DNA of 64,000 bases from NCBI GenBank assembly GCA_963766885.1, contig CAVYBO010000002.1:528606-592605 (forward strand), read 5' to 3'. This DNA comes from an uncultured bacterium. GTDB taxonomy: Bacteria; Patescibacteriota; Minisyncoccia; Phycocordibacterales; CAIRYW01. The position numbers and the translations under genes are program-made. Below the pieces are notes generated by a model. The model made no database searches, was not told the DNA's origin, and saw only the letters and a list, made by a program, of their open reading frames with translations. Position 1 is the stretch's first letter; each line of letters opens with the position of its first letter. Positions 7,988-54,252 of the stretch are shown in pieces.

Positions 7988-8002
7988 AAAGTAACAAAAA
8001 TA

Positions 8003-8092
8003 GTTCTCGAAAAAGAGACTTTGGAGGAGCGACGGCGACGGAAGCGAGGAAATTTTTCAGCAGAAAAAATTCCGTGCTCTTTGAGAGAACTA
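8003..8092. repeat. GC-rich structured small repeat element, copy A
   Basis: Core ...ggaggagcgacggcgacggaagcgagg aaatttttcagcagaaaaaattcc... with internal hairpin and imperfect terminal inverted repeats. Homologous to the copy at 30475-30565. Confidence 0.5.
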
Positions 8093-8395: not shown

Positions 8396-8427
8396 AAATT
8401 TATTCTACTATAAAAAATATTTTTTGA

Positions 8428-8463
8428 GACAAAAAAATTCGGCCCTTGGTTTCCCTCGGGCCG
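8428..8463 (-). terminator. Rho-independent terminator after the 8512-9945 gene
   Basis: On the minus strand cggcccgagggaaaccaagggccg hairpin followed by a T-run. Confidence 0.5.
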
Positions 8464-8511
8464 ACTCGATTTTCTTTATACTCCGTCGTTCGGAGTTTAT
8501 TTCACACAGTA

Positions 8512-9945: not shown

Positions 9946-10130
9946 GTCGTGTGTATTTAGTCAACTAGTTTTTGCTAGCAGCATTTTAGAAAGAAAAAAT
10001 TCCGTTCAAAATGCTGCCAGCAGTCTGATTTCAAAGACCACTTTATTACTGGTATATTCTATCACATTTTTATCATAAAGTCAAACAAGAATACTCTTAT
10101 AAAATAAGCTTAAAATGCTATAATTTTTTC

Positions 10131-32710: not shown

Positions 32711-32720
32711 AAATAACACA

Positions 32721-34553
32721 ATGAAAATAAACTGTAGAAAAATTTTTAATTTTTTCTCTCCGATATTAATATTTTCAATGGTTTTTTATCTTCCTCTCAG
32801 TGCTTATGCCCAAGCCACACAAGCCCAGGTTCAACAGTATTCGAGTGCGCTTTCACAATACGGAACATCAGTGCAAGGCGGCACAGGCACAAGCCCAACT
32901 TATGGACAATCTGGGACAGCAGGACTGGCAGGTGCGGCGGGTTCTTGTTCAATCGGCACACTAGGTGCAGCGTTAATTACCAGCACGATAACAAAAGCTA
33001 TTGGCGCTGTGGCCGGTTTGGGACAAACAGCAACTGGTGCCGGAACAAGCGCAGTCACAAGCTCAACTGGCCAAGCTGTTCCAATCCAATACGCCACAGG
33101 GGATGAAATGGTTTTTCAAGCCATAAGCAAAAACCTCAAGGACCAAGGTCAAAGAAATTTTTCCTTAAATGCAAGCGATGGTTCTTTCAACGGAATTGTG
33201 GCTCAAGGAGCTTCGCTTGGATTTAATCTACCGAGCCTCAACGCCATTGGATTTTGCATAGTAAATGAGATTCTTGCCTATATTACCCAGTCAACAATTC
33301 AGTGGATTAACAGCGGTTTTCAAGGCAGTCCTGTTTTTGTGTCAAATACCGGAGAGTTCTTGCAAGGAGTAGAAGACCAAGAACTTGGAAATTTTGTGAA
33401 CGGTATTGCAGAGGGAACCCTCGGAATAAATCTCTGCCAACCTTTTAAGGTGCAGGTGCTTTTGGGCACCCTTGGTGTTGGCGGAAGAGGCCAGCAAAAT
33501 CCATTAAGCTGCACATTAAACGCTATAAAAAATAACTACAATCAATTTGTGGGAGGCAACTGGGGTTCGGGCGGAATGCAAGGTTGGTTTGAGCTTACTC
33601 AAGGAGCAAATAATCCATACGGAGCTACAATGATCGCTCAGCAGCAAGCCCTACTCCAAGTCAACAAACAGCAAAATAATCTTTTGATTAATCTTAATTG
33701 GGCAAAGGGCTATCACGACTTTACATATTGTCAGGATAAAAGCACCCCTAACACCACAACAGGCAAATGCTCCAACGGAGCAGCGCCGGTTACAGGCACT
33801 CCAGGCGATTATATTCAAAACCAAGTCAACGCCAGAGCAGCTGCTCCAGAACAACGTCTGAATATTGCTACAGACTTTGATCAATTAGTTTCAGCGTTAG
33901 TTAATGAGCTGATACAAATCGCTATAAATAAAACACTGGAATCTGCAAATCCTAATACTCCTTACTACACTCCTCCAACTTACAACAACACATCATCAGG
34001 CGGCGGATCTTCTGGTGGTTCGCCAGTAACATATACTCAACCTGTTGTATCTTGTTCTGGTAGTGATGTATATACGACAAACAGTACTGCAAGCAGTACC
34101 TCAACAATAATATGGTCTGCTTCTGCTACAGGCGGAAGCGGCAACTTCGTATATTATTGGAACGGAGACGCTTATGGAAATTCTCAAAATGTTACAAATA
34201 CATACAGCACATCTGGAACAAAAAATGCCACACTAACTGTATATGACGCTACTTCTGGACAGACATCCTTGGCTACTTGTTCTGCTGTTGTATATGGCGG
34301 CAGCACTAGCAGCATTACCGCTTCTTGCTCAGCATACCCATCAGGAAACGCTATAACCTGGATTGCCGACACCACGGGCGGAAGCGGCAACTACACATAC
34401 TCTTGGAGCGGAGACGCTTACGGATCTTATTCAAGCGTTACAAACACATACGCCACTAGTACAAGTGGAACAAAAAGCGGAACAGTGACCGTCTCTGACG
34501 CGTCTTCTTCAAGCACTCCAGCCACAGCTAGCTGCTCTGCAAGCATTAGTTAG
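32721..34553 (+). CDS. Secreted Gly/Ser-rich protein with two C-terminal PKD-like ~85-aa domains
   Basis: Signal peptide. The C-terminal repeats containing TGGSGN(F/Y)(V/T)Y(Y/S)W(N/S)GDAYG and bounding Cys residues resemble the repeat unit of the 61023 gene. Confidence 0.5.
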   Translation: MKINCRKIFNFFSPILIFSMVFYLPLSAYAQATQAQVQQYSSALSQYGTSVQGGTGTSPTYGQSGTAGLAGAAGSCSIGTLGAALITSTITKAIGAVAGLGQTATGAGTSAVTSSTGQAVPIQYATGDEMVFQAISKNLKDQGQRNFSLNASDGSFNGIVAQGASLGFNLPSLNAIGFCIVNEILAYITQSTIQWINSGFQGSPVFVSNTGEFLQGVEDQELGNFVNGIAEGTLGINLCQPFKVQVLLGTLGVGGRGQQNPLSCTLNAIKNNYNQFVGGNWGSGGMQGWFELTQGANNPYGATMIAQQQALLQVNKQQNNLLINLNWAKGYHDFTYCQDKSTPNTTTGKCSNGAAPVTGTPGDYIQNQVNARAAAPEQRLNIATDFDQLVSALVNELIQIAINKTLESANPNTPYYTPPTYNNTSSGGGSSGGSPVTYTQPVVSCSGSDVYTTNSTASSTSTIIWSASATGGSGNFVYYWNGDAYGNSQNVTNTYSTSGTKNATLTVYDATSGQTSLATCSAVVYGGSTSSITASCSAYPSGNAITWIADTTGGSGNYTYSWSGDAYGSYSSVTNTYATSTSGTKSGTVTVSDASSSSTPATASCSASIS

Positions 34554-34639
34554 AAGTGGTCACTGTCAGATTAAAATAAATAAAAATATTCAGGATTTTC
34601 TTTTTGATTTGTTCTATAATATAAACATATTCAACTGAA

Positions 34640-37399
34640 ATGACTTCAAAAAGATTTTTAAAATGGGCGGGATTTATTTCTATATTTTTTGTTTTATGTA
34701 TTTTTAGTACCAGCAGCGCAAGGGCAGATACTCCTGTAATAATTACTACGAAAGGTCTTCCCTCTGGCGTATCAATTCCTTCTACATCACCGTCTTTAAC
34801 ACTTACTGATAGTAGTGGAAACACAGATAGTAATGTGTACAAAGCAAGTAATGGAAACTACTACGAATTAGCGCTACCATCTTACTCAAATGGAGAGACT
34901 GCAACATTTACACAAGTAACACCAAAAACTGATGCGAATGGAAACCCTATAATTACGAGTACTGGACAACCTTTTGGAAGTTCTTCTAACGGATCAGGTG
35001 CCTCCACAGGGGCTAATGGCCAAAACGGCTATACTAGCGGAGGAGTCAACACCGCCGCTGAAACTAATAGCCAATGTCAGGGTACTCTTGCAATTTTATT
35101 TGATGTTGAATGTTGGATATATGCTGTAATGTATTTTATTTTGTGGGCACTGAGTTTGGTCATAACAGTTGTTGGATCTCTGTTTAATTTTGTCTTCAGT
35201 TATACGGTCTTTGATATGTCTGCCAACATCAACAGCTTGGGTGCAATAGACGTGGCTTGGAAAACTATGCGCGACTTAGCTAACATCTGTTTTATATTTA
35301 TTCTTCTTTACCTTGCTATTTCCACAATTCTTGGCTTGGATGAGCACGGGGTCAAGCACACTCTCTCAAAGCTTATTATTATGGCCCTTCTTCTAAACTT
35401 CAGTATGTTCTTTACTAAAATAATAATTGATGCGGCGAACATCATTTCTATAAATTTCTATAATGCAATCAATTATGGCGGAAATGCAAATATGGGAGAT
35501 ATTTTTATGTCTGCTTTCCAACTTCAAACAATATACAACAATTCGGGTATAAACGTCGCTAACACACAATCGGCCAATACCATAAGCAATATTGCGGCAT
35601 TCATTCAAAGCGATCATCCTATAGCGATATTCTTGGGAGGATCAATTTTTGAACTTGTGGCCCTGGCTGTTTTGGTTTCATCAATAATGATGTTCATCAA
35701 GCGTTTTGTAATATTAGTGTTGGTAATCATATTTTCTCCTCTTGCCTTTGCTGGAATGGTGCTTCACCAAACCGAGCACTTTGTGCGCGAATGGTGGAAT
35801 TATCTTCTAAAAGAAGCGTTCTTTGCTGCGATTTATATGATAATGCTTTGGGTCGTAATATCCATAATCGCTAGTTGTGGATTCAAAGCAAGTATCGGAT
35901 TGCTCCCAAGCGGCGCAAGTTGTAAAAACAGCACAGACACCAGTTCTTCTTCTAGTGTAGGCGGACAAGGCTTGGGGTATTCTTTTGAAAATCCAGTAGC
36001 AACTGGGGCTAATGGCTTGGGAGGTTCTGGAGCAGTTTTCTTTGATTTTGCTATTGTAACGGCGCTTCTAATTGCCATTCTTATTGCATCAGAACATATG
36101 GGAGTTGTGGGAGCAGACAAAGCAGTGCATGGAGTAGAGCATTTTATGGGCAATGTCGGCGGCTGGGTTGGGTCAAATACATTAGGAAGGATTGGGAATA
36201 CAGTATTGAACAAAGGTGATTCTGCTACATTTTTGCGAGATGCTGCTGCTGGTAGACTTGGTAATAATCCTGTATCTAAATTCATATATCGTAGAATTGG
36301 AGAGGCTGGAGTGGGTGTTACCTCAAGCATGAGTGCGGGTAAATATGGAGGACATCATAGTTATGAAGATAAGGTTCATCACAGAGAGGAGGCGTTTGAA
36401 GCATCAAGCGATGAACACCACGAGGATTCATTAGTTGACGCAGAGATGCTTATGCGAGGAGCAAGTGATCCCCTAAGAACTATGGGTACAGATTTTAAGA
36501 CTGCCGATCATTTACATCATAAATGGAACGCGGAAAAACACGCTAACGTAATGCTAGCACTCCAAAGTATTGAAGGAGATGCAAATAGACCTGCAGCAGA
36601 AAGAGCAAGAGCAACAGGAGCATTGGACAGATTTTATACGGGGGGTCATGCCGGAACAGGAAGGCTAACACCTGAAAAAGCTAACCAGGTATCTAGAGCA
36701 ATAAGTGGGGGTGTGGAATTTATTAACGATCAATATAGAAACTTGATAAATAATTTTGACCCAAATAATCAAGCAACAGTTGATGCTTTTAGAAACTTCT
36801 TTCGTGCTGAAGGTAGGACTCAAGCGCAAATCTTGCAGGCAATTAAATCGCAAGGACAAGCTGCTGCTACACGATTCATGGGTGCCACAGCCCAGGCGCA
36901 GACGCTGCGAGACACGTTAACAGAAGAAACAAGAAATGTTTTCAACGGAGAAAGGCCTTACGCAGCCATTGCAAGCGATGATCTTATAAGCGACGAAGTT
37001 AAAACAGCTATTGCCACGGGCGGTTACCAAAAAACAATGTTATCAAATCTTTATTCTATCTTTACAGGAGCACATGCTAACACAGCTCGTACCAATCCAG
37101 CCGTAGTAGCTGATTTTCTACATAGGCTTACAGATTACGCGGCGCATGCCCCGGCAGCAAATGTTCAACAGATTACAGCAGCTCTTGGACAAATTACACC
37201 CGGCATGACACCAGCTCAAGAACAAGCAGTGTTACAAGCAGCAATTACAGCATACGGAAATGAAGGAACGACTCATGCAGCAACAGCGTCTTACTATAAT
37301 GGACAAAATGGACAACGAAGCCAGACTAGATCTCCTGTAATAGATCGGGAATACAGACAAAATAGTAATTGGATGAATGATCCAAACTTAAGACCGTAA
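34640..37399 (+). CDS. Large polytopic membrane protein, VirB6/TrbL-like (tentative)
   Basis: Signal peptide, then a cluster of 5-6 TM helices with conserved aromatic residues, then a long hydrophilic C-terminal extension. Sits in a locus with VirB4 and PrgI-like genes. Confidence 0.4.
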   Translation: MTSKRFLKWAGFISIFFVLCIFSTSSARADTPVIITTKGLPSGVSIPSTSPSLTLTDSSGNTDSNVYKASNGNYYELALPSYSNGETATFTQVTPKTDANGNPIITSTGQPFGSSSNGSGASTGANGQNGYTSGGVNTAAETNSQCQGTLAILFDVECWIYAVMYFILWALSLVITVVGSLFNFVFSYTVFDMSANINSLGAIDVAWKTMRDLANICFIFILLYLAISTILGLDEHGVKHTLSKLIIMALLLNFSMFFTKIIIDAANIISINFYNAINYGGNANMGDIFMSAFQLQTIYNNSGINVANTQSANTISNIAAFIQSDHPIAIFLGGSIFELVALAVLVSSIMMFIKRFVILVLVIIFSPLAFAGMVLHQTEHFVREWWNYLLKEAFFAAIYMIMLWVVISIIASCGFKASIGLLPSGASCKNSTDTSSSSSVGGQGLGYSFENPVATGANGLGGSGAVFFDFAIVTALLIAILIASEHMGVVGADKAVHGVEHFMGNVGGWVGSNTLGRIGNTVLNKGDSATFLRDAAAGRLGNNPVSKFIYRRIGEAGVGVTSSMSAGKYGGHHSYEDKVHHREEAFEASSDEHHEDSLVDAEMLMRGASDPLRTMGTDFKTADHLHHKWNAEKHANVMLALQSIEGDANRPAAERARATGALDRFYTGGHAGTGRLTPEKANQVSRAISGGVEFINDQYRNLINNFDPNNQATVDAFRNFFRAEGRTQAQILQAIKSQGQAAATRFMGATAQAQTLRDTLTEETRNVFNGERPYAAIASDDLISDEVKTAIATGGYQKTMLSNLYSIFTGAHANTARTNPAVVADFLHRLTDYAAHAPAANVQQITAALGQITPGMTPAQEQAVLQAAITAYGNEGTTHAATASYYNGQNGQRSQTRSPVIDREYRQNSNWMNDPNLRP

Positions 37400-37400
37400 A

Positions 37401-38102
37401 ATGCAAAAGCTAAAACAAAATCAATACACCGAAATTTTTCAAAAGCTTCCTGCTCCAATCAAGGATGTGGTAGCAGCAAGTACCACTTCGGAAAAAATTT
37501 TTAAGATTGCCCAGACACATCGTCTGCAAGTGGATCAATCTGGAACTTTAAATAATATAGTGCTTGATGTTTTGATGGGTATTACTTCTGTCAAAAATTT
37601 TTTGGACACAGTTAAGCAAGAAATCAATCTGGAACCCCACGAAGCGGTGGCACTGGTAAATGATATTGATGAACAAATATTCAAGCCGGTGCGAGAAGCT
37701 ATGGAAAAGGCTTTTGCCGGCGGAGCGCCTTACAAGCCGCGAACAATAGCCACAGCAGACGAGAATGACGATGAGCATCTGCATCTTACCAAGCGCGATG
37801 TCCTAAAGGAGATTGAAAATCCGGCGGAATCTCAAGTAAGAAAAGTTTTGATTAATAATCCTGATTCTCATAAAGAAGATAATCCAAAACCTGAAAATAT
37901 TCCCAAGGAGCCCGAAGCGACAATAGCAACAACAGAGGCAGTGGAGGAATATCACGAAGAGCTTACTGGGAATAAAATTGAAATAAGAAAATTGCCAGTA
38001 GAAGCATCTGAAGAAGCGCCAAAAGAAGAAATCAAAACTCCAGAACCTCAAAACACTGAACAAAAATACCAAGTTGATCCATACAGAGAGCCGATAGAAT
38101 AA
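37401..38102 (+). CDS. Hypothetical acidic protein
   Basis: ORF immediately following and co-directional with the T4SS-like genes. Confidence 0.35.
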   Translation: MQKLKQNQYTEIFQKLPAPIKDVVAASTTSEKIFKIAQTHRLQVDQSGTLNNIVLDVLMGITSVKNFLDTVKQEINLEPHEAVALVNDIDEQIFKPVREAMEKAFAGGAPYKPRTIATADENDDEHLHLTKRDVLKEIENPAESQVRKVLINNPDSHKEDNPKPENIPKEPEATIATTEAVEEYHEELTGNKIEIRKLPVEASEEAPKEEIKTPEPQNTEQKYQVDPYREPIE

Positions 38103-38135
38103 CTACACATAGGAATTTTCTGCTATAATTTATAT

Positions 38136-38627
38136 ATGCAGTATCAAGTTCCTCAATTCATAGAAATAGAAGACAAGATTTTTGGTCCTCTGACCTTTAA
38201 GCAATTTGCATATGTGGCCGGAGGCGGCGCAATGTGCTTCTTGGCTTGGAGATTTTTGCCTGTTTTCATAAGTATTTTTATCATAGTTCCTGTTGGCGGC
38301 TTTGCCTTAGCATTAGCATTCTATAAAGTGAACAACAGGCCTTTTGTTTTTATGGTTGAGTCGGCTATAAAATATTTTTTCAACAAAAAACTTTATATCT
38401 GGCAAAAAGAGAAGAAAAAACAGGTAGAAAAAACTGCAGCTGTGGCAGCAAATAAAGTTTATATACCCAAACTTTCCGAATCTAAACTCAAAGAGCTGAC
38501 ATGGAGCTTGGATATTAATGATACAATTTATTCAAAGTCCCAAAAATCGCCAATCATTAACGGGGATAGTAAAGAAGTTTCGAGTTTCAAAGGACTAAGC
38601 GAAGATATGAAAAAACAATGGCAATAA
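38136..38627 (+). CDS. PrgI-family (VirB3-like) small membrane protein (tentative)
   Basis: VPQFIEIEDKIFGPLTFKQF followed by two TM helices. Positioned directly upstream of VirB4, as PrgI/VirB3 usually is. Confidence 0.45.
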   Translation: MQYQVPQFIEIEDKIFGPLTFKQFAYVAGGGAMCFLAWRFLPVFISIFIIVPVGGFALALAFYKVNNRPFVFMVESAIKYFFNKKLYIWQKEKKKQVEKTAAVAANKVYIPKLSESKLKELTWSLDINDTIYSKSQKSPIINGDSKEVSSFKGLSEDMKKQWQ

Positions 38628-39259
38628 GTTCTCAAGATTTTGTTCCAATAAAAGAAGTAAGGGAAGGCGTCGTGATTATGAAAGACGGCTCCCTTAGGAA
38701 TATCATTATGACTTCTTCAATAAACTTCGCCCTCAAAAGTGAAGACGAGCAAGAAGCGATTATAATCCAATTCCAAAATTTCTTGAATACTCTGAATTTT
38801 TCAATTCAGATTTTTATGCAATCCCGTCGTTTGGATATTAGACCGTACATTGCCCTTTTGGAAAATGTTCTCAAAGAACAGAGGAACGACTTGCTTAAAA
38901 TCCAAACCAGAGAATATATCGCTTTTATCAAGACGTTCACCGAGCAGGTAAACGTTATGAGCAAGAGTTTTTTTATCGTAGTGTCTTATGAACCAGCCAT
39001 GCTAAAAATGAAAAAAAACCCTGTAAGTAAATTCATTGGGTCTAAAAAAGAAGAGGATAAAGTGCAGAGTAATGACAATTTTGAAGAACAGCGGGAACAG
39101 CTTCTTGAAAGAGTGGAAGTGGTTATTCAAGGGCTGACTAGACTGGGTGTACGGTCTTTGACTCTCGGCACCGAGGAAGTCATTGAGCTTTATTACAAGC
39201 TTTTCAACCCAGGTGAAACAGAGAAGCCTATAAATATAAACCAAGTAGTAGAACATTAA
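38618..39259 (+). CDS. VirB4-family ATPase, N-terminal fragment
   Basis: DFVPIKEVREGVVIMKDGSLRNIIMTSSINFALKSEDEQEAIIIQFQNFLNTL resembles the N-terminus of Gram-positive VirB4 homologues (TrsE/Orf16-type). Stops 2 nt before the next ORF. Confidence 0.55.
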   Translation: MAISSQDFVPIKEVREGVVIMKDGSLRNIIMTSSINFALKSEDEQEAIIIQFQNFLNTLNFSIQIFMQSRRLDIRPYIALLENVLKEQRNDLLKIQTREYIAFIKTFTEQVNVMSKSFFIVVSYEPAMLKMKKNPVSKFIGSKKEEDKVQSNDNFEEQREQLLERVEVVIQGLTRLGVRSLTLGTEEVIELYYKLFNPGETEKPININQVVEH

Positions 39260-39261
39260 TT

Positions 39262-41085
39262 ATGTCAGTATTAGATAAATTATTTAATAGAAAACAAGAT
39301 TCACAATTGCGGCCCGCAACAGCAATATTGCCGGAAGAAATTTACGAATCGGCGGTATTGGAACTCAAAGACGTCATCGCTCCATCAGCCATCAAAGTAT
39401 CTCCTCGAGAACTCAATCTGGGCGACAAAATAGCCAGAACATTTTTTGTTATTTCTTATCCAAGATTTTTGACCGAAAGCTGGTTCGCGCCGATAATCAA
39501 TCTGGATAAAATTTTTGATGTTTCAATATTCATTCATCCGATAGACACAGCTCAAATCCTTAGAACATTTCAAAAAAAAGTGGCAGAAGTCCAAAGCCAG
39601 ATACATATGCGGGAAGCAAAGGGCTTGGTCAGAGACCCTGTGCTAGACACCGCATATCAAGACCTGGAACAACTTCGAGACCAGCTGCAACAAGCCCAAG
39701 AAAAAATATTTGATGTTGGACTTTACTTCAGTATTTATGGCAGCACCGATGAAGAATTGGACAAGATCGAATCAGAAATAAAGTCCATCCTTGAATCAAA
39801 GCTTGTTTACGTAAAGCCTGCGCTATTTCAGCAAGAACAGGGCTTCAGAAGCGTTATGCCATTTTGTAATGATGAGCTCAACGTCAATTCCAAATTAAAT
39901 TCTTCTCCGCTTTCAAGCGTTTTCCCGTTTATTTCTTTTGACCTGACAAGCGACAAAGGTATTCTCTACGGCGTCAATCGTCATAATTCCAGCCTTATTC
40001 TTTTTGACAGATTCTCTCTTGAAAATTACAACTCAGTAACGTTCGCCAAAGCGGGAAGCGGCAAAAGCTACTGCACCAAACTTGAAATTCTGCGTAGTCT
40101 GATGTTTGACATAGATGTTATTGTTATTGACCCGGAAAAAGAATACGAATATTTATCCGAAGCCACAGGCGGAAGATATTTTAATATTTCCTTGAATTCC
40201 GAGCACCATATCAATCCTTTTGACCTGCCGATTCCAAGAGAAGACGAATCTCCTGCAGATGTTTTGAGAGGAAATATTATTAACCTTGTGGGACTCTTTA
40301 GAATAATGCTTGGCGGCATCACTCCTGAAGAAGACTCGATCATAGACAAAGCAATTACTGAAACATACGCTCTCAAAGACATTACCCCAGAATCAGATTT
40401 TGGATCAATTGAGCCGCCGCTTCTTTCTGACTTTGAATTGGTGCTCGCAGGAATGGAAGGCGGTGATTCGCTTGTACAACGCCTTGAAAAATACACCAAA
40501 GGCACATGGGCGGGATTTATCAACAAGCCGTCAAACGTGGACATCAACAAAAAATTCGTGGTGTTTTCACTGCGAGATATGGAAGACGAGCTCAAACCTG
40601 TGGCAATGTATATCGTCACTCACTATATATGGAACGCTATCAGGCAGAAATTAAAGAAAAGAATTCTGGTTATTGATGAGGCCTGGTGGATGATGAAGTC
40701 CGAAGACACAGCGTCGTTCCTGCTTGGGCTTGCTAAACGATGCAGAAAATATTTTCTTGGGCTTGCCACAATCACCCAAGACGTGGACGACTTTCTCAAA
40801 TCTCCATACGGCTTGCCGATTATCACAAACTCATCCATTCAGATTTTGCTCAAGCAATCCCCGTCTTCAATAGACAACGTGCAGCATACTTTTAACTTAA
40901 CAGATGAAGAAAAATATCTTTTACTTGAATCAGATGTCGGTGAAGGAATATTTTTTGCTGGCCTCAAGCACGTGGCAATCAAAATCATTGCTTCATACAC
41001 CGAAGACCAAATCATCACTTCTGACCCATCTCAAGTTTTGGCAATTCAACAGGCCAAGAAAGATGCTGAGGAGGATAAGTTATAA
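39262..41085 (+). CDS. VirB4/TrsE/PrgJ-family type IV secretion ATPase, main part
   Basis: Walker A FAKAGSGKSYCTKLEI, Walker B VLVIDEAWWMM and CagE/TrbE/VirB domain features. Confidence 0.8.
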   Translation: MSVLDKLFNRKQDSQLRPATAILPEEIYESAVLELKDVIAPSAIKVSPRELNLGDKIARTFFVISYPRFLTESWFAPIINLDKIFDVSIFIHPIDTAQILRTFQKKVAEVQSQIHMREAKGLVRDPVLDTAYQDLEQLRDQLQQAQEKIFDVGLYFSIYGSTDEELDKIESEIKSILESKLVYVKPALFQQEQGFRSVMPFCNDELNVNSKLNSSPLSSVFPFISFDLTSDKGILYGVNRHNSSLILFDRFSLENYNSVTFAKAGSGKSYCTKLEILRSLMFDIDVIVIDPEKEYEYLSEATGGRYFNISLNSEHHINPFDLPIPREDESPADVLRGNIINLVGLFRIMLGGITPEEDSIIDKAITETYALKDITPESDFGSIEPPLLSDFELVLAGMEGGDSLVQRLEKYTKGTWAGFINKPSNVDINKKFVVFSLRDMEDELKPVAMYIVTHYIWNAIRQKLKKRILVIDEAWWMMKSEDTASFLLGLAKRCRKYFLGLATITQDVDDFLKSPYGLPIITNSSIQILLKQSPSSIDNVQHTFNLTDEEKYLLLESDVGEGIFFAGLKHVAIKIIASYTEDQIITSDPSQVLAIQQAKKDAEEDKL

Positions 41086-41086
41086 A

Positions 41087-41659
41087 ATGGATAAAAAAGA
41101 AAGAATTTCAAAAGGCACCAGAAAACTAATGATTGGCTTTACGTTAACCCTGGATGCAATAAAGTTTTTGCTTGCAATTCTAGTAATAGGCGAAATTGCC
41201 AATAGGCTTATAAATATTTTTGCGGAAATAATACTTTGGATATGGTTTAAATCCAAGGGAGTAAGTTTTTATGGGTCAAGAAATGCAGTCAGGGCTGGCA
41301 CTACTTTTTTTATCGGAACAACACTTGGAGAAGTACCTGTGGTTGGGGACTGCTTATTAACTGTTGAAACAGCTTTGATACTTTATATGATAAAATTGGA
41401 AGATAAGACAGGACTTTCAACACAAAAATTAATACAGGATCCGGTCCAGATGAATAAAATTGTCCGATACGGCCAAAAAATTAATAATAAAATACAAAAA
41501 ACAGGCAACCCTCAACAGCAAAAAATTATAGCCCAAAGGGAACATTTAGCAAAACGAAACGCGGATAATCAGCCTAAAAACATACTCACTCCAGCAAATT
41601 TAAGTAAAAATAATGTCGAAAATAATTCAACACAAGAAAATCTTCAAGCCGCTGCTTAG
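41087..41659 (+). CDS. Hypothetical membrane protein
   Basis: Start taken at MDKKER immediately after the VirB4 stop. 2-3 TM helices. Confidence 0.4.
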   Translation: MDKKERISKGTRKLMIGFTLTLDAIKFLLAILVIGEIANRLINIFAEIILWIWFKSKGVSFYGSRNAVRAGTTFFIGTTLGEVPVVGDCLLTVETALILYMIKLEDKTGLSTQKLIQDPVQMNKIVRYGQKINNKIQKTGNPQQQKIIAQREHLAKRNADNQPKNILTPANLSKNNVENNSTQENLQAAA

Positions 41660-42692
41660 CGCTTTGGGTCTTATATGCATATTTGGATTTGCATTTGAAG
41701 TAAAAGCTCAATTGGACACTTCTCCTTCTATTCCTTCCGAGATACCAGAAATCCAAGAACAAGTTTACGTTGACCAAGCTCCGGGAAATCCAAATCCGGG
41801 AGACACGGTGAAAATAAGTTTGGAAGCCTACGGCACAGACTTGAACTCCGCAAATGTTACTTGGAAAATTAACGGCACCGTTGCCAAAGAAGGCAGGGGG
41901 ATTGCAGAGCTTGATGTTGTTGCCGGAGATTCTGGCACCAAAAAAACCGTAGATGTATATATCGACCCTCCAAATGGCCCAGAGATACAAAAAACAGTAG
42001 TCATAGAGCCGGAGCAACTGGATATTGTATGGGAAGCCAAAGCATATACACCTCCGTTTTATAAAGGCAAAGCCTTGTATGCTCCGCAAGAAAAAGTTGT
42101 CATTGCTGCTTTTCCAAACTTTGAAGCAGATGGTTCAGTTGGAGTTGACCCAAGCCACATCTCATACAGTTGGACAAACAATCTTGACGCTGTGCCGCAA
42201 TATTCCGGTTACGGATCAAACTATATGCTTTTCCAAGGGCCGATTGTCCAAGATGATCAATATATATATGTAACAGCAACAGCCGATTCTGGAGCTAGCG
42301 CTGAAGCCAATATAGACATGCTTCCAACGCTCCCAAATGTTTTAGTTTACGAAGACAATCCGCTTTATGGAGTATTATTCAACAAAGCACTGCCGGCAAA
42401 CTTTAGTCTTCAAGACAGCCAGACCACATTGGCGGCTTATCCATATTACTTTGGATTTACATCACAGACTGATCCAAATGCAGAATATCAGTGGACAATT
42501 AATGGACAAAATATTTCTGCTTCGCAAAGTCAGGCTACAATGGTATTTACCAACTCTTCTGGACAATCCGGAAGCTCTGAGGTAGGTATTGATGTACAGA
42601 ATGCAAACAATTTTTTGGAAGAAGCAACCCAGAATCTAAATATAAATTTTAATGCAACGAGCAATCAACAGAATACAGGTGTATCATTTTAA
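41613..42692 (+). CDS. Secreted or membrane-anchored hypothetical protein
   Basis: Signal/anchor LLSALGLICIFGFAFEVKAQ. No family recognised. Confidence 0.4.
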   Translation: MSKIIQHKKIFKPLLSALGLICIFGFAFEVKAQLDTSPSIPSEIPEIQEQVYVDQAPGNPNPGDTVKISLEAYGTDLNSANVTWKINGTVAKEGRGIAELDVVAGDSGTKKTVDVYIDPPNGPEIQKTVVIEPEQLDIVWEAKAYTPPFYKGKALYAPQEKVVIAAFPNFEADGSVGVDPSHISYSWTNNLDAVPQYSGYGSNYMLFQGPIVQDDQYIYVTATADSGASAEANIDMLPTLPNVLVYEDNPLYGVLFNKALPANFSLQDSQTTLAAYPYYFGFTSQTDPNAEYQWTINGQNISASQSQATMVFTNSSGQSGSSEVGIDVQNANNFLEEATQNLNINFNATSNQQNTGVSF

Positions 42693-42696
42693 TTAA

Positions 42697-43911
42697 ATGC
42701 AAAATATTAAAAACCAAAAAAATAGACTCTTCAAAATAATAATATTTTTTATTGTTTTAACTTCTTCTGCAGGTTTGGTAAAAGCCCAACAAACAGCACA
42801 ACCGTACACTCAACTTGCTCCTATTACTTTGCCGTCTGCTTTGCCAGGTAGCAGCAACCAAATTACAAGCAGCAACTTAGGACAATATTTTTCTCAGATG
42901 TATCAATTAGGGGTAGGAGTGGCTACGGCATTAGCAGTACTAATGATAATTCTTGGAGGAGTTGAGTATGTGACCACAGACGCAATTGGTGGCAAAGAAG
43001 AGGGAAAAACAAAAGTTCAGAATGCAATATTAGGACTTTTACTAGCTTTAGGCTCGTGGATAATTCTCAATACAATTAATCCCGCTTTCTTGAATACCAA
43101 CTTGCAGATTTCAAATGTCACTTTGAATTGTACTAATCCTGCTGGCTGCGGGCCTGGATTTGGAAATTCTAATGGGTTAAGTACAGGAAATGGTGGGGAA
43201 GGAGCAGGAACAAACAACAGCACAGTGGGTGCTTTAACACCTAGTCAACTTGCAATTAATAGTATGACACCAGCTCAACAACAAGCTTATGAGCAGGCTC
43301 TTTATGATCAAGCCATGGGTAATCCTCTAACACCAGATGATCTAGCCGCAATGTCAGAATACAACACTGCACTTACCGCTGATAGTTCCAGTTCCAATGC
43401 CACTGGTGGAGTCCCAAATAATGGAGGAAACATTGCGCAAAATTCTTTAGCAGGATCAACTTTTCCAGCAGGTAGTGGTGTTACAAATGCGCAGGTGTTA
43501 AATTTAATAAATCAATCAGGACTTACAGGACTAAGTCCATCCGATGCTTCTAATTATTTTCCAAATGGACAAATCACAGCTCAGGATTATGAGAGTCTTC
43601 TTGCAAGTGTGGCAGACAGTGAATCTGGATTTAACCCACAAGATAATACTAATGGCAAAACTGTTGATTATATTGACCCGAATACTGGTCAGCCGGTGTA
43701 CTCGGAAGGTCTTTTTTCACTTAGTACAACAGATCCAGCAGTAACAGCTTTGGCAAACCAATATGGAATTACCCCTCAACAAGTTATAAGCAATCCCCTA
43801 TATAATACTCAAGCTGCAATAAATATTTTAAAAACTCAAATACAAAAAACCGGATCTATAGCTGGTAATGCTGGCATACATTATTGGGGACCGCTTTATA
43901 AGGGAGAGTAG
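42697..43911 (+). CDS. VirB2/TrbC-like membrane domain fused to SLT-type lytic transglycosylase (VirB1-like)
   Basis: N-terminal signal plus two hydrophobic segments (YQLGVGVATALAVLMIILGGVEYV...AILGLLLALGSWIILN). C-terminal ESGFNPQDNTNG...GLFSLS corresponds to the SLT E-S-x-F-N-P ... GLMQ motifs. Confidence 0.5.
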   Translation: MQNIKNQKNRLFKIIIFFIVLTSSAGLVKAQQTAQPYTQLAPITLPSALPGSSNQITSSNLGQYFSQMYQLGVGVATALAVLMIILGGVEYVTTDAIGGKEEGKTKVQNAILGLLLALGSWIILNTINPAFLNTNLQISNVTLNCTNPAGCGPGFGNSNGLSTGNGGEGAGTNNSTVGALTPSQLAINSMTPAQQQAYEQALYDQAMGNPLTPDDLAAMSEYNTALTADSSSSNATGGVPNNGGNIAQNSLAGSTFPAGSGVTNAQVLNLINQSGLTGLSPSDASNYFPNGQITAQDYESLLASVADSESGFNPQDNTNGKTVDYIDPNTGQPVYSEGLFSLSTTDPAVTALANQYGITPQQVISNPLYNTQAAINILKTQIQKTGSIAGNAGIHYWGPLYKGE

Positions 43912-43951
43912 AGATTATAATAATCCAATTAAATTTGTATAAAATATAAAA

Positions 43952-45394
43952 ATGTCCAGAAAACAAATATTCATAATATTCTCACTAATCCTGCTTATTT
44001 TGATTTTTGTTTTTATTTATATTTTTGCTTTGCTCCAAAAAAACAATGGCCAATACGATCTAAGCGACGGATTTTCAAATTCTGTCAGAGGTTTTCTTCC
44101 TTTTGGCAATCTGGCTCCGTCAAATGTCGTAAGTAATAATCAAAATTTAAACCCAAATAGCAGTCCATCAAATATTTCTTCCACAACTCTACCAGAAATT
44201 ATGCCCCGTCTTCGAGAAATTTCTTCTGTGCCTGTGGCCGGATCTGAAATCGTAGCAAGGGAAAGAGATGTTGTTGTAAACAAAGTTAAAACAAAAGTTT
44301 ATGATCAATACATCAGATTTGTGGACAGGGCAACGGGCCATGTTTTTGAAACCAAAAGTGATAGCCCTGCTATCACAGAAATTTCCGATACCACAATACC
44401 AAAAGTTTATGAAGTGGATTTTTCTTCAAATCCGAATGTGGCGATTTTCAGATCGTTGGATGAATCCACAGATACTATTCTTTCTGAAGTGGCCACTCTA
44501 GCAAGTTCAACTTTACCAATACAAGCCACTTCCACAGCTTTTGAAATAAATTCTACCTCAACAACAACCAGCACTTCAACAGTTGAAGTTTATACTGGCA
44601 CTCCTTACAAAACTGAAATCTCATATCTTCCTAACAATATTGCAAATCTTGCCGTGGGTCCTAGCTTGCAAAAAATGATTTATTCACTGCCAAATGCTAG
44701 TGGAGGAAACATACTAGTTTCAAATATAGACGGCTCCAAACCTTTGGTGGCATTTACTTCTGCTCTCAGCGGCTGGCTGCTTAGCTGGCCAAACTCCAAA
44801 TATACGGTTTTGACTACCAAGCCATCCGGCTTTGCCAACGGCATCTCGCTTCTGTTAAATCTTTCGAGCGGCTCTTTAAGCAAAATTGCTTCTGGCAATG
44901 GCCTGACAACTCTTGTTTCTCCAGATTTAAGCACAGCTTTAGTCGGGAAAGGTGGATTAACAATGGATTTGAGTGCGGAGAACTTAAAAGACAGCAGTTC
45001 TTTAGGACTCTCTCTTCAAACTCTTCCTGAAAAATGTGTCTGGGCAAATACTGAAAACTCAATTGCATATTGTGCTATTCCTAACATAGTGCCTAAAGGC
45101 ACTTACCCAGATGATTGGTATCAAGGATTAATTTCATTTACAGATAATATTTGGGAAATAAATACCTCAACAGGAGTAAGTAATATAGTTGCCGCACTTT
45201 CGGAAGATTACAATCAAAACATCGACGCTATCAACCTGCAAATTTCTTCAGATGATTCTTATCTTACTTTTATGAACAAAGATGATCTGACTCTCTGGGG
45301 ATACTGGCTTCGCCTTGCAACTTCAACTCAAGCAACATCCACCACAGCTTCAACCAACAAATCAAATAGTGCCTCCACTTCTGCCACCTTCTAA
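43952..45394 (+). CDS. Membrane-anchored Ser/Thr-rich hypothetical protein
   Basis: N-terminal TM helix IFIIFSLILLILIFVFIYIFALL. Last gene of the co-directional cluster. Confidence 0.4.
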   Translation: MSRKQIFIIFSLILLILIFVFIYIFALLQKNNGQYDLSDGFSNSVRGFLPFGNLAPSNVVSNNQNLNPNSSPSNISSTTLPEIMPRLREISSVPVAGSEIVARERDVVVNKVKTKVYDQYIRFVDRATGHVFETKSDSPAITEISDTTIPKVYEVDFSSNPNVAIFRSLDESTDTILSEVATLASSTLPIQATSTAFEINSTSTTTSTSTVEVYTGTPYKTEISYLPNNIANLAVGPSLQKMIYSLPNASGGNILVSNIDGSKPLVAFTSALSGWLLSWPNSKYTVLTTKPSGFANGISLLLNLSSGSLSKIASGNGLTTLVSPDLSTALVGKGGLTMDLSAENLKDSSSLGLSLQTLPEKCVWANTENSIAYCAIPNIVPKGTYPDDWYQGLISFTDNIWEINTSTGVSNIVAALSEDYNQNIDAINLQISSDDSYLTFMNKDDLTLWGYWLRLATSTQATSTTASTNKSNSASTSATF

Positions 45395-51233: not shown

Positions 51234-51827
51234 TTATGAAGTCCTTCTCCTAATGAAACATATAATTAACACAGTTAAGTTGCAAATAATAATAGTTACA
51301 AGATAGGTTAGTGTTAGAAAATTATATTGAGCGCTTGAAGCTACGGTGAGAATATTTGCAACTACCATAATCGCCCAAAATTTAAGGGTTTCACTCCAAG
51401 GATCTTCAAAAGATTTTCTAAAAGTTGGAAAGTAACCAAAGCCATCAATTATAGAAATCATTATTATTGCAAGCAGTAGGTCTTTTAATTGCCACCACAC
51501 AACGATAGCAACTAAGCAGAAAAGAAGGATTACTGTGTCTATTGGCTTTATATTTTTTGTTCCGTATTTAAAAGAAAGAAGAAAAACTAAAATAACAAGA
51601 AGTAGGCAGGTGAATAGAACTAGTGTCGCAAAATTTCCGCCGCCATACCACGAAGCTATCGTTGCCATACCTACAGTGATTGTCCATATCAGCCAAGTGT
51701 ACAAATGAGGTTTTGTTTTCCTAAGAAAAATATCTTTGAAATACGGAATGTATCCTAAAATAGTGAGTATTACAGCTATGACAGCAAATATAAATTTGTA
51801 ATTTATGTAAAACAACTTTTTAATCAC
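51234..51827 (-). CDS. Hypothetical polytopic membrane protein
   Basis: 5-6 predicted TM helices. Confidence 0.4.
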   Translation of the reverse strand: MIKKLFYINYKFIFAVIAVILTILGYIPYFKDIFLRKTKPHLYTWLIWTITVGMATIASWYGGGNFATLVLFTCLLLVILVFLLSFKYGTKNIKPIDTVILLFCLVAIVVWWQLKDLLLAIIMISIIDGFGYFPTFRKSFEDPWSETLKFWAIMVVANILTVASSAQYNFLTLTYLVTIIICNLTVLIICFIRRRTS

Positions 51828-54252
51828 TCAAACCTTGCACTTGGAAATTTACGCTGGCTGTGCCGGTGTTGTTGTTTTGGTCGGTGATGACAACTTTCAG
51901 AGTGTTCGTGCCTGGTGTCGCGCCGACGCCTGTTGGAATAAAGCTGAATGAAAATGGGTAACTTGTAGAACTGCCTATATAGTTTCCGTTCAAAAAGTAG
52001 TCTGCTTTTTTTGGAGCGCTTGTGCTATTGATGCTTACCACTGTTTGAGTATTTGCAGGAATTGTTGCTCCATTTGTTGGGGTGATGAATGCAACGCCGA
52101 GCTGGCTTGATGTCACTGTTGGGCTTGAGAAATTAATTCGGCCTACGCTCTGAAGCCAGTATTGAACACCGTATTCCCAGCGGGAAAATTGCGGATCGTT
52201 GTTTGGATTTGAAGGAGGAGGGCCGAGGGGATTGCTTTTGTCTATCCAATAAAGCTCTGAGTGTATTGATCCGTCCGGGCCGACATATGTGCCGTTTAAG
52301 AGCGGTTTTTGATTGCTAACATCAACCGGATCCGGCTTATCAAATGATTCGTTTGGAAGTCCTGGTAAAATCTCGTTCATAAACGCGTGCCACATCGGAC
52401 CGGCAATATATCCTGCCACTTGCTTAGCGATAGGGCTGTTGTCGTTGTTTCCCATCCATGCGCCAACTGTAATTGACGGAGTGTAGCCAATAATCCACAT
52501 ATCACGGAAATCATTTGTTGTTCCTGTTTTAACAGCAACATCTCTGCCGGGAAAATACAAACTTGATGCTGCTCCGAATTCCGGAGTTCGGGCCACGTTG
52601 TCGGAGAGAACATCTGTTATTAGAAGGGCAGTTTGTTTTGGAAGAACTTGTATAGGGTTATTCTGGTACTGTTCCAAAACATTTCCCACACTGTCGGTAA
52701 TGCTTAATATTCCGGTGTCAGGATGCCTTACCCCTTCGTCTGCAAATACACTATAAGCAGATGTCATATCAAGAAGTTTTACCGCTCCTCCTCCAAGCAC
52801 AAGGGACAAACCGTATTCCTTTGGATCTGTCAGAGTTGTGATGCCCATGTCTTGAGCCATTTTGATAGCGTTAGGCACTCCTACTAGATAAAGCGTTTTT
52901 ACTGCCGGAATGTTTATGGATTGTGCCAGGGCATTTCTGATTGTTATTGGTCCGCGGAATTTGTTGTCATAGTCGTTTGGCGAGTAGCAGTTTTTAGAGT
53001 TATCGTTTGATGTGCTGTAGAACGGACAGGTTGTTGAGAACTGTGTTTTAACGTCAAATAGTACGGTGTTTGGCGTATATCCATCATTGAATGCTACAGA
53101 ATATACAAAAGGCTTGAACGAAGATCCTGGCTGACGAAGAGCGGTTGTTACGTTGAAGTTGCCGTCGTTTGCTGTATCAAAATAGTCTGCTGAACCAACC
53201 ATAGCTAAAATTTGTCCTGTCGGAGAATCAATTGCCACAAGACCGGCATTTGTAGCGTGGTATTTCACAGCATCTGTTGCAACATATTGTTTGACGACAG
53301 CTTCTGCTTTTTGCTGCATATCGTAATCAAGGGTGGTGATTACTTTAAGTCCACCGGTCTGTAAAATTGTGTCGCCATACTTTTGCTCAATGTAATCTCT
53401 GATATACATCACAAAATGCGGCGCCTTGATGCCTCCGGAGAGAGAATCTTGGAAAGCCACTTTTTCGTTTACAGCCTGTTCATATTGCGTTTCTGTGATG
53501 TATCCGTACTGCTTCATTTTTTGGAGAACAAGATTCTTTCTTGTTTCAAGATCGCTTAGATGGCTTCCATATGGAGAATAATATGTGGGCGCTTGAGGAA
53601 GAGCTGCAATATATGCTGACTCGGCAATATCCACATCACTTGCATTTTTTCCAAAAAATTGTTCCGCTGCTTCCTGTACGCCGTAAATAGTGCCGCCGTA
53701 AGGAGTTTCATTTAGATAAAGCTCCAGAATTTTGTCTTTACTCAATTCTTGTTCAAGTTTTATTGAAAGTACTATTTCTTTGATTTTTCTGGTGATTGTT
53801 TTGTCCTGGGTTAAGAGGGCGTTTTTGATAACCTGCTGTGTAATTGTTGATCCTCCTTGGCTGAATTTTAGGGAAAATATGTCGGCAAGAGCAGCGCGGA
53901 TTGTTGAAGAAACTTTTATTCCTCCATGGCTGTAAAATCCCTCATCTTCAATTGAAATCGTAGCATCCTGAATGTAGGGAGAGATTTTATCAAGCGGCTC
54001 GTAAGTGCGGCGTGTACTATTGCCGAAGTCATAAAGCAAAACCGTGCCGGTACGATCGTAAATCTTGGTAGACTGGCTCATTATCTGCTGGTCAAAATTT
54101 GAAAGATCTGGGAGCTGAAGAGAGGAAATCCAGATAACAAGTCCGCCGGCAAGCAAAAGGAAAATGATCAAACCAATCATCATTAACTCCTTTACTTTTG
54201 CTTTAAGGAGCCATTTTTTTACCCTTTTAAAAAATCGGCTTATTTTCTTCAC
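51820..54252 (-). CDS. Class A penicillin-binding protein (glycosyltransferase + transpeptidase)
   Basis: N-terminal TM, GT51 motifs (EDEGFYSHGGI, GGSTITQQV) and transpeptidase region. Confidence 0.8.
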   Translation of the reverse strand: MKKISRFFKRVKKWLLKAKVKELMMIGLIIFLLLAGGLVIWISSLQLPDLSNFDQQIMSQSTKIYDRTGTVLLYDFGNSTRRTYEPLDKISPYIQDATISIEDEGFYSHGGIKVSSTIRAALADIFSLKFSQGGSTITQQVIKNALLTQDKTITRKIKEIVLSIKLEQELSKDKILELYLNETPYGGTIYGVQEAAEQFFGKNASDVDIAESAYIAALPQAPTYYSPYGSHLSDLETRKNLVLQKMKQYGYITETQYEQAVNEKVAFQDSLSGGIKAPHFVMYIRDYIEQKYGDTILQTGGLKVITTLDYDMQQKAEAVVKQYVATDAVKYHATNAGLVAIDSPTGQILAMVGSADYFDTANDGNFNVTTALRQPGSSFKPFVYSVAFNDGYTPNTVLFDVKTQFSTTCPFYSTSNDNSKNCYSPNDYDNKFRGPITIRNALAQSINIPAVKTLYLVGVPNAIKMAQDMGITTLTDPKEYGLSLVLGGGAVKLLDMTSAYSVFADEGVRHPDTGILSITDSVGNVLEQYQNNPIQVLPKQTALLITDVLSDNVARTPEFGAASSLYFPGRDVAVKTGTTNDFRDMWIIGYTPSITVGAWMGNNDNSPIAKQVAGYIAGPMWHAFMNEILPGLPNESFDKPDPVDVSNQKPLLNGTYVGPDGSIHSELYWIDKSNPLGPPPSNPNNDPQFSRWEYGVQYWLQSVGRINFSSPTVTSSQLGVAFITPTNGATIPANTQTVVSINSTSAPKKADYFLNGNYIGSSTSYPFSFSFIPTGVGATPGTNTLKVVITDQNNNTGTASVNFQVQGLSD

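Follow-up and report, generated by a model that had tools for sequence, protein, structure and literature searches.

Introduction

Type IV secretion systems (T4SSs) of Gram-positive bacteria need a membrane-anchored cell-wall hydrolase, represented by PrgK, TraG of pIP501 and TcpG. The T4SS of Patescibacteria is MPF-FATA-like and has VirB2-like pilins (Quinonero-Coronel et al. 2025, PMC12102498). In this 2025 survey of 3,035 genomes, VirB1 and VirB2 were scored separately, and most genomes with VirB2 were without VirB1, so that pilus biogenesis would not need VirB1 (PMC12102498). Pilin-enzyme fusions are not mentioned in the main text of the survey or in part of its tables. Here we describe such a fusion, encoded at positions 42697–43911 (+) of a 64,000-nucleotide (nt) stretch of DNA from an uncultured bacterium of the Patescibacteriota (GenBank contig CAVYBO010000002.1, positions 528,606 to 592,605; hereafter the window). 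A preliminary description, made from the sequence of the window, had proposed a TrbC/VirB2-type pilin joined to a VirB1-like lytic transglycosylase and had called this combination unusual.

The nearest characterised enzyme is DslA (Bd0314; PDB entries 6TA9, 6TAB, 6TAD and 6TAF) of Bdellovibrio bacteriovorus, a lysozyme specific for peptidoglycan with deacetylated N-acetylglucosamine (PMC7511926). DslA is an inverting hydrolase with two catalytic glutamates, E143 and E154 (PMC7511926). A DslA-like domain has also been annotated in the T4SS cluster of Southlakia epibionticum. Specifically, Table S2 of Wang et al. 2023 assigns to SEML1_0006 a DslA-like domain (ECOD e6tabA1), a second lysozyme domain and a Cys-peptidase domain, and lists SEML1_0007 as M15B-like and SEML1_0014–0019 as PF18895 pilins. 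Both SEML1_0006 and SEML1_0007 are reported to be essential for epibiotic growth (PMC12102498). In a full-text literature search, which is no proof of absence from all literature or from InterPro architecture listings, the architecture reported here was not found described, and the NCBI name of two of the fusions is simply 'pilin'.

A T4SS pilin family member with a long C-terminal extension

The gene starts with an ATG located 4 nt 3′ of the end of the preceding gene and consists of an open reading frame (ORF) of 404 amino acids (aa) plus stop, with matches to the Pfam models T4SS_pilin and SLT. Full-length homologues with 45–53% identity, encoded in conserved synteny, show that the ORF is a real gene; its product is a fusion of a pilin module and a DslA-like muramidase domain.

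The fusion protein contains three hydrophobic segments, as revealed by a 19-residue Kyte-Doolittle scan combined with charge counts: a signal-type N-terminus, transmembrane segment 1 (TM1, residues ~66–89) and TM2 (~107–127). A charged loop of 15 residues, TTDAIGGKEEGKTK, lies between TM1 and TM2. The full-length AlphaFold2 (AF2) model folds this region into a hairpin with helices 61–93 and 97–127, and a model of the module alone gives a hairpin again, its helices spanning residues 25–59 and 65–93. The signal sequence and the two hydrophobic segments with a polar loop in the preliminary description are thus confirmed by the hydropathy and charge scan and by the AF2 hairpin.

Specifically, residues 1–30 (42697–42786, +) form the signal peptide, with five K/R residues in the n-region, a hydrophobic core at residues 11–24, a VKA/QQ site and a predicted AF2 helix at residues 3–27; cleavage after residue 30 is predicted by the −3/−1 rule. 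The mature N-terminal segment, residues 31–62 (42787–42882, +), carries a Y-x-P/Q-L-A-P-I motif that is conserved in the alignments and is predicted to be disordered, the pLDDT (predicted local distance difference test) of residues 24–60 in the AF2 model being below 50. The VirB2-like hairpin follows at residues 63–133 (42883–43095, +) and comprises helix 1, the charged loop D95–K106 and helix 2, which ends in NTINP. The predicted topology places the C-terminal 270 residues outside the membrane, with or without cleavage of the signal peptide.

The assignment of the N-module to the Patescibacteria T4SS_pilin family, PF18895, is solid by sequence comparison. PF18895 matches residues 65–127 of the whole protein with E = 5e-5 and 23.7 bits (cut-off, 26.6 bits), and when the N-module is scanned separately the score rises above this cut-off, to 27.7 bits (E = 2.8e-6). 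The family is likewise matched by 11 of 12 full-length relatives (best E = 6e-7) and by all 34 of the 34 stand-alone relatives; stand-alone pilins of 108–190 aa reach 73% identity to the N-module of the fusion. In size the fusion protein departs from typical PF18895 members, as it continues for ~270 residues past the NTINP motif.

Kinship with the classical TrbC/VirB2 pilins appears weak, though consistent. PF04956 (TrbC/VirB2) gives no match on the window protein at E up to 1; it matches 23 of 34 relatives weakly (best E = 0.0043) and reaches E ≤ 1e-3 in 4 of 77 extended pilins (best 1.8e-4). Among 177,635 PDB sequences, the top match of a pilin profile is VirB2 of A. tumefaciens, aligned in register at a non-significant E = 0.27. 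The predicted helical hairpin is compatible with the fold of solved pilus subunits; Foldseek searches of the PDB with the isolated hairpin model are uninformative in either direction, as they return generic helical hairpins, with nothing at E ≤ 1e-3 and with VirB2 and TraA outside the top 50. The pilin proposed in the preliminary description is therefore upheld as a PF18895 member, whereas its link to the classical TrbC/VirB2 family is weak. Two other pilin classes were considered and rejected: a type IV pilus pilin, as there is no class III prepilin signal, and a sortase pilin, as there is no LPXTG motif.

The extension ends in a DslA-like domain with a conserved glutamate

Residues 245–404 (43429–43908, +) form a domain of the lysozyme superfamily, related to GH23/SLT enzymes and most similar to DslA. 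Pfam SLT (PF01464) matches residues 298–386 of the whole protein with E = 6e-4 and 19.8 bits (cut-off, 21.3 bits). The same family is matched (E < 0.01) in 10 of 12 full-length relatives, with a best E of 1.7e-7; P0020 scores 25.5 bits. A C-domain profile built from 13 sequences has a single match in the PDB, namely Bdellovibrio DslA (6ta9/6tab/6tad/6taf, E = 2e-5), and the alignment spans residues 52–153 of the 160-residue query domain. DslA is reached by the family profile only, as phmmer of the single fusion protein against PDB sequences returns nothing; NCBIfam has no model for the fusion protein, its C-domain or its unknown neighbours.

The predicted structure points in the same direction. 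The full-length AF2 model has a mean pLDDT of 66.5, with blocks of the C-domain mostly at 80–92, and its only confident Foldseek match is DslA (6taf/6tad; probability 1.00, target-normalised TM-score 0.48–0.51 over 137–142 columns).

The ES motif lies at codons E309–S310 (43621–43626, +), which the model places at the end of a predicted helix, residues 295–310. E309, the putative general acid, aligns with E143 of DslA; in the alignment, chain 6tad of the E143Q mutant shows Q at the column of E309. This mutant of DslA is catalytically inactive (PMC7511926). In a set of 65 C-domains, E309 is Glu in 64 of 64 aligned relatives and S310 is Ser in 62, and S336, G338 and L339 are each kept in at least 62. 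In addition, a YW motif at codons Y396–W397 (43882–43887, +) corresponds in the profile alignment to Y228–W229 of the active-site loop of DslA, where its role has been described (PMC7511926); it is conserved in 47–49 of 54 aligned relatives. Both motifs singled out in the preliminary description are present in the ORF, ESGFNPQ within ADSESGFNPQ, which contains E309, and GLFSLS within EGLFSLS, which contains G338–L339, and the catalytic Glu that it sought in the ES motif is matched by E309.

The second catalytic position of DslA is less well kept. E154 is replaced by Gly320 in the window protein; of 65 relatives, 30 have E and 15 have H at this position. Candidate substitute acids are D316 (34 of 65), D324 (32 of 65) and the invariant D283. 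D283 (43543–43545) belongs to the motif S-D-x-x-x-Y-F-P, 26 residues before the ES motif, and is invariant in 64 of 64 aligned relatives. No counterpart of D283 has been described in DslA; its role may be structural, or it may serve as the second acidic residue of the family. The two disulfides of DslA (C117:C253 and C182:C199) are without equivalent, as residues 245–404 contain no Cys.

SLT family 1 enzymes carry motifs of the G-L-M-Q and A-Y-N-x-G type. The window protein has GLFSLS, not GLMQ, and Gln is found at position 341 in 28 of 65 relatives; its C-domain has no AYNxG motif, and the C-terminal loop carries YWGP instead. Judged by these motifs and profiles, the C-domain is a GH23-related muramidase of the lysozyme superfamily that is nearer the DslA branch than VirB1. 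The VirB1-like lytic transglycosylase of the preliminary description thus holds as far as the superfamily and the ES glutamate are concerned and gives way to a closer relationship with DslA. Its sequence is compatible both with a single-acid lytic transglycosylase and with a hydrolysing lysozyme.

A more DslA-like relative of the C-domain is found in P0205 (246 aa, 31% identity), which has a lipoprotein-type N-terminus (LLESC), several Cys and no pilin module. P0205 may mark a branch outside the Candidate Phyla Radiation (CPR) from which the domain was recruited.

Hairpin and enzyme are connected by two further segments. Residues 134–181 (43096–43239, +) form a disordered linker of G/N/S/T-rich composition (pLDDT 27–42), which contains the only two Cys of the fusion protein, C145 and C151. 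Residues 182–232 (43240–43392, +) form a small helical spacer with predicted helices at 182–188, 192–207 and 213–232 (pLDDT 70–86). This spacer corresponds to a degenerate version of a ~45-residue module, W-x-N-W..DQxNF..A...LTPxQQAA, that is seen in P0013–P0019, P0021, P0025 and the paralogues at loci L005 and L006, located between the hairpin and the enzyme in fusions with differing enzymes, and that is duplicated in some fusions (P0015 and P0018). The module has no match in Pfam; it could act as a stalk, bind the wall or provide a docking site.

The fusion recurs in Paceibacteria-type T4SS operons

The fusion gene lies within a co-directional block of genes, 31796–45394, in the order PrgI, TrsD, VirB4, two unknown genes, the fusion and one unknown gene, followed by jag/yidC and dnaA. 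PrgI (VirB3-like; 38136–38627, +) is recognised by PF12666 (E = 2.6e-9) and is syntenic in L001–L015. The TrsD/TraC-like ORF (38618–39259, +) corresponds to a VirB4 N-terminal-type domain encoded on its own; it has a weak TraC_F_IV match, and its homologues carry PF26593 TraC-like. A TrsD-type protein appears as FATA_TrsD in the supplement of PMC12102498. The VirB4-type ATPase (39262–41085, +) matches P-loop_TraG (E = 1.8e-26) and AAA_10. These neighbours bear out the membership in a T4SS that the preliminary description had proposed, and the operon is the origin-proximal Patescibacteria T4SS described in PMC12102498.

The VirB4 function is distributed over two ORFs: the 213-aa TraC-like/TrsD ORF shares its first 10 nt with prgI and is followed, 3 nt after its end, by the P-loop ORF of 607 aa. 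Since the same split (212–217 plus 603–609 aa) occurs in all related loci, it is not a frameshift.

The closest homologues of the fusion come from metagenome-assembled genomes of Candidatus Paceibacterota and Nomurabacteria. Ten other distinct loci (L001–3, L004, L007–L012, L014 and L015) encode the C-domain and the pilin module in one ORF, which is always located between homologues of the two genes that flank the fusion in the window, p359 and p480, and downstream of PrgI-TrsD-VirB4. Wherever the flank of a relative's locus extends far enough, dnaA is found downstream of the fusion. An additional pilin gene lies beside the fusion in 5 of 11 loci and is missing in 6, the window included. In L001, the module of the fusion is 77% identical to the adjacent stand-alone pilin.

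The family profile retrieves 27,443 cluster representatives at E ≤ 1e-3 among 1.84 billion proteins, and most of them are pilins. The architecture counts given here cover 204 collected proteins. Sixty-two of the 204 combine the pilin module with a DslA-like C-domain; in a further 77 the pilin module is extended by 100 or more other residues, and 9 contain two to four tandem pilin modules. Only 3 of the 65 proteins with the C-domain have no pilin module, and 2 of these 3 are fragments; a word-indexed homologue search with the C-domain alone returned two proteins. The fusion is thus a recurrent, modular architecture of Paceibacteria-type T4SS operons. It is unusual, as the preliminary description stated, when set against classical Gram-positive T4SSs, but with 62 of 204 proteins and 10 other syntenic loci it is not a one-off.

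Tandem T4SS_pilin modules within one polypeptide are seen in P0094, P0109, P0123, P0124, P0153 and P0155, and also in P0004 and L008:5038–6471. In P0094 (618 aa), four pilin modules precede a canonical SLT domain (RESGG...GLMQI...AYNCG), while P0004 and L008 have two pilin modules followed by a DslA-like domain. Such proteins could be cleaved polyproteins or multi-hairpin membrane proteins.

Different wall enzymes occupy the same slot

In relatives, the slot behind the pilin module is filled by enzymes of several types. In L005, the module is followed by an NlpC/CHAP-like cysteine peptidase, whose profile matches endolysin 8tw1 (E = 1.6e-8) and then CwlO and MepS; Cys and His are invariant in this group. 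In L006, the same slot holds YkuD_2, and on the P0029 contig the module is followed by VanY. Pfam assigns SLT to 3 of the 77 extended pilins, VanY to 3, Peptidase_M15_3 to 2, Peptidase_M15_4 to 1, YkuD_2 to 2, YkuD to 1 and 3D to 2. The remaining non-pilin Pfam matches are nearly all weak and concern membrane-protein families, and ~60 of the 77 C-extensions are without Pfam recognition. A profile of the presumed 3D/DPBB-like C-domains finds no match in the PDB, and one weak Pfam DPBB_1 match was obtained otherwise.

Two loci encode fusion paralogues in tandem, L005:10001–12191 and L006:10001–12686. In these pairs, the DNA is 100% identical from ~nt 30 to ~450 after the start codon and unrelated thereafter, so that an NlpC/CHAP-like C-domain (L005) or a YkuD_2 C-domain (L006) stands beside an unrecognised one. 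Both loci are short-read metagenome contigs, in which identity between paralogues may be an assembly artefact; gene conversion, cassette exchange or such an artefact could account for the identical 5′ DNA. The segment L005:1–21110 is in addition a near-perfect palindrome, with the gene order from VirB4 to a 483-aa gene mirrored from ~13,700, and is probably an inverted-duplication assembly artefact.

The exchange is also apparent from the modules themselves. The module of the window has 69% identity to modules with other C-domains and a median of 40% to those of other DslA-type fusions, and for 27 of the 62 DslA-type fusions the nearest module is in a protein of another architecture; the proteins compared are a sample biased toward top hits. 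The enzyme type thus appears independent of the relatedness of the pilin modules, a pattern that points to domain shuffling.

Other genes and features of the window

Two conserved genes flank the fusion directly. The upstream gene, p359 (41613–42692, +), encodes a 359-aa secreted or anchored protein with weak Ig/PKD-like Pfam matches only, and a homologue occupies the same position in every locus with enough flank. The downstream gene, p480 (43952–45394, +), encodes a 480-aa protein with no Pfam or NCBIfam match. We considered p480 as a cognate immunity protein and rejected this, since it is conserved downstream whichever enzyme the pilin carries.

Further upstream, a 919-aa polytopic protein (34640–37399, +) is a tentative candidate for a VirB6-like channel subunit, on the basis of a sub-threshold NCBIfam match (E = 5e-4) to conjugal-transfer membrane proteins of Mycoplasma integrative and conjugative elements. 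Between virB4 and p359, the ORF 40904–41659 as listed has its first 182 nt in common with virB4. A start at the in-frame ATG at 41087, which comes immediately after the stop codon of virB4 and has AGGATAAG in front of it, would give a ~190-aa product with hydrophobic helices, a size that fits the 177–263-aa gene at the equivalent position in relatives.

The T4SS block is flanked by ksgA and uvrD upstream and, downstream, by jag and yidC on the other strand and then by dnaA (47283) and dnaN. A class A penicillin-binding protein (PBP) gene is located at 51820–54252, and since it is present in the window, the source cell makes peptidoglycan. The window contains no other pilin module and no second copy of the C-domain, and the T4SS cluster contains no other recognisable wall enzyme. 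Promoter and terminator scans of the 31–46 kb region gave matches at chance level only.

At 8001–10000 the GC content rises locally to 0.50, compared with ~0.38 elsewhere in the window, and the spike matches the location of an ORF of 477 aa at 8512–9945 (−). The region contains no rRNA, and Rfam finds only four tRNAs in the window (6637, 11947, 13109 and 13227). It may have been acquired horizontally.

Discussion

We consider it fairly probable that the fusion is the peptidoglycan-cutting component of the Patescibacteria T4SS, with the enzyme attached to the C-terminus of a VirB2-type pilin and not made as a separate protein of the VirB1/PrgK type. After export and cleavage of the signal peptide, the hairpin would reside in the membrane, its charged loop facing the cytoplasm and the enzyme lying outside. 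The enzyme would be concentrated at the machine because the hairpin is presumably a module that the T4SS handles as a pilin; tethered in this way, it could be stored in the membrane or be raised by VirB4 at the base of a pilus or along it. The flexible and helical spacer of ~110 residues would give it the reach to glycan strands, which E309 would cut by general-acid catalysis. The cut would open the producer's own wall for passage of the machine or pilus, the role of VirB1 in diderms and of the membrane-anchored PrgK, TraG and TcpG in Gram-positives, and the wall of an attached host cell might be opened too. A role at the cell's own wall is the parsimonious one, because the cell makes peptidoglycan and no other wall enzyme is recognised in the operon. 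Furthermore, because the same module bears interchangeable wall enzymes in relatives, the pilin would be a common carrier for peptidoglycan-active domains.

Several points weigh against this reading. The whole-protein Pfam scores of both domains fall just under the curated cut-offs (T4SS_pilin, 23.7 against 26.6 bits; SLT, 19.8 against 21.3 bits). At the pilin end, Foldseek is unable to tell the hairpin apart from other helical hairpins, and no Patescibacteria T4SS pilus has been visualised, a FEMS review crediting the group with the 'potential to elaborate conjugative pili'. At the enzyme end, the chemistry, and even full activity, is unproven because the E154 equivalent is Gly320 and is Glu in only 30 of 65 relatives. 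In addition, YkuD-type L,D-transpeptidases, which occupy the same slot, are not lytic, and fast exchange of enzymes behind identical modules is more typical of effectors with variable targets than of a housekeeping hole-puncher.

This last point leads to a different reading, which is possible although we think it unlikely. Here the module would polymerise, alone or together with stand-alone pilins, the enzyme would be displayed along the filament or at its tip, and the main target would be the host wall, the exchangeable C-domains being 'warheads' matched to host wall chemistry. The abrupt change of enzyme behind identical 5′ DNA in the L005 and L006 paralogues and the failure of enzyme type to track the relatedness of the modules speak for such a polymorphic effector; the 77% identity between the L001 fusion module and the neighbouring stand-alone pilin fits co-assembly, and the long flexible spacer would suit display. 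The nearest characterised enzyme, DslA, is moreover a predator enzyme that cuts modified prey wall and spares its own, and its YW motif is kept in the fusion. Epibiotic growth of Southlakia requires its T4SS and the pilins, and neither a relaxase nor a coupling protein can be recognised. Muramidase, NlpC/CHAP, M15 and L,D-transpeptidase-like domains are antibacterial effector classes of the type VI secretion system (T6SS) and of the X-T4SS, and short C-terminal additions on F-pilin are tolerated and surface-exposed. However, no PF18895 protein is known to form a filament, a cargo of 270 residues per subunit is sterically demanding, and 6 of the 11 loci have no nearby stand-alone pilin to dilute it. 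There is also no immunity-like gene that varies with the enzyme, p480 being constant, and the machine's own passage needs a wall enzyme anyway, for which the operon offers no other recognised candidate. Self-protection could come from substrate specificity, such as a DslA-like preference for a modification that the epibiont lacks, and not from an immunity protein. The most specific form of this reading, a Patescibacteria T4SS pilus in which the subunits, either all of them or some at its tip or base, bear interchangeable stalked wall enzymes that drill the host wall at contact, is a speculative one that we hold to be doubtful.

It is improbable that the hairpin is a mere anchor without pilin handling and the enzyme an autolysin for wall growth or cell separation. 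The hairpin fold is unspecific and the neighbourhood is a housekeeping one (yidC, dnaA, dnaN and the class A PBP gene), as this would have it; yet the anchor is homologous to stand-alone T4SS_pilin proteins, with up to 73% identity, the gene has a fixed position in the PrgI-TrsD-VirB4 operon at every locus examined, and the C-domain hardly ever occurs apart from the pilin module.

Quite improbable, too, is a lysozyme-like domain that is no longer hydrolytic and serves as an adhesin for peptidoglycan or glycan, fixing the pilin or pilus to a wall. The Gly at the position of the second catalytic Glu of DslA would agree with such a loss, but the inactive lysozyme-like proteins considered have lost the Glu of the ES motif, which is kept here in all 64 aligned relatives, and for GH23 lytic transglycosylases this one acid suffices (PMC7511926). 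Furthermore, the alternative domains in the slot have retained the signatures of catalysis, such as Cys and His, which are invariant in the NlpC/CHAP-like group. A prophage-type holin-endolysin or a lysis protein resembling signal-arrest-release (SAR) endolysins is hardly credible and was rejected: membrane helices are indeed combined with a lysozyme-like domain, and the NlpC/CHAP-like relatives resemble phage endolysin 8tw1, but there are no phage genes nearby, the place in a chromosomal T4SS operon is conserved across species, and the N-module belongs to the T4SS_pilin family.

The fusions are relevant to the passage of CPR epibionts across two cell walls. A large part of bacterial diversity belongs to the Patescibacteria, and the one species amenable to genetics needs the T4SS and its pilins in order to grow on its host. 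Our analysis indicates that, at least in Paceibacteria-type genomes, a wall-enzyme function can hide in genes that are scored or annotated as 'pilin', and that VirB2-type pilins can bear large C-terminal cargo that is exchanged like cassettes. If the enzymes were indeed displayed on a pilus, the fusion would be the first example of a T4SS pilin that carries an enzyme and would provide a concrete mechanism for the breaching of hosts by CPR epibionts.

Comparison with known systems places the reading of the fusion as the wall-cutting component of its T4SS in context. With DslA, the fusion has in common the ES motif in register (E309 corresponding to E143) and the S-x-GL and YW motifs. It differs in that DslA has E154 and two disulfides, whereas the C-domain of the fusion has Gly320 and no Cys; in that the crystal-traced fold of DslA starts at residue 74 (PMC7511926), whereas the enzyme of the fusion is tethered to a pilin module; and in that the gene of the fusion belongs to a T4SS operon, in a CPR bacterium that is monoderm. 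Like VirB1, PrgK (of pCF10), TraG (of pIP501) and TcpG, the fusion is a T4SS-encoded, putatively peptidoglycan-cleaving enzyme of the lysozyme/SLT superfamily (PMC12102498), and like the Gram-positive T4SS hydrolases it would present a membrane-tethered, extracytoplasmic wall domain, to judge from its predicted topology. PrgK, TraG and TcpG have a single N-terminal TM anchor and combine several domains, SLT plus CHAP with or without LytM (PMC12102498), whereas the fusion has a signal peptide plus a VirB2-type hairpin and one catalytic domain. Other activities sit on separate pilin fusions, and the sequence of the fusion is nearer DslA than SLT/VirB1, the Pfam SLT match being marginal.

The fusion is likewise akin to the Patescibacteria PF18895 pilins, such as SEML1_0014–0019 of Southlakia epibionticum, with which it has in common the signal peptide, the Y-x-P-L motif, the two helices, NTINP and the VirB4/PrgI neighbours. 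The stand-alone pilins end a few residues past NTINP, at 108–190 aa, whereas the fusion runs on for ~270 residues. Outside this family, the 'evolved' VgrG, Hcp and PAAR proteins of the T6SS carry C-terminal wall hydrolases, and the bacteria-killing X-T4SS has wall-degrading effectors. The fusions resemble these in combining a conserved structural or delivery module with interchangeable peptidoglycan-active domains, and their identity breakpoints are reminiscent of polymorphic toxin loci; they differ in the machine and in the fold of the carrier, and the fusion has no evident immunity gene. Finally, SEML1_0006 and SEML1_0007 are enzymes of a CPR T4SS cluster that belong to the same classes as those on the Paceibacteria pilin modules. 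Compared by annotation table only, they are multi-enzyme or separate proteins for which no pilin domain is listed. The same enzyme classes thus accompany the T4SS as separate proteins in Saccharibacteria and as pilin-borne domains in Paceibacteria-type genomes.

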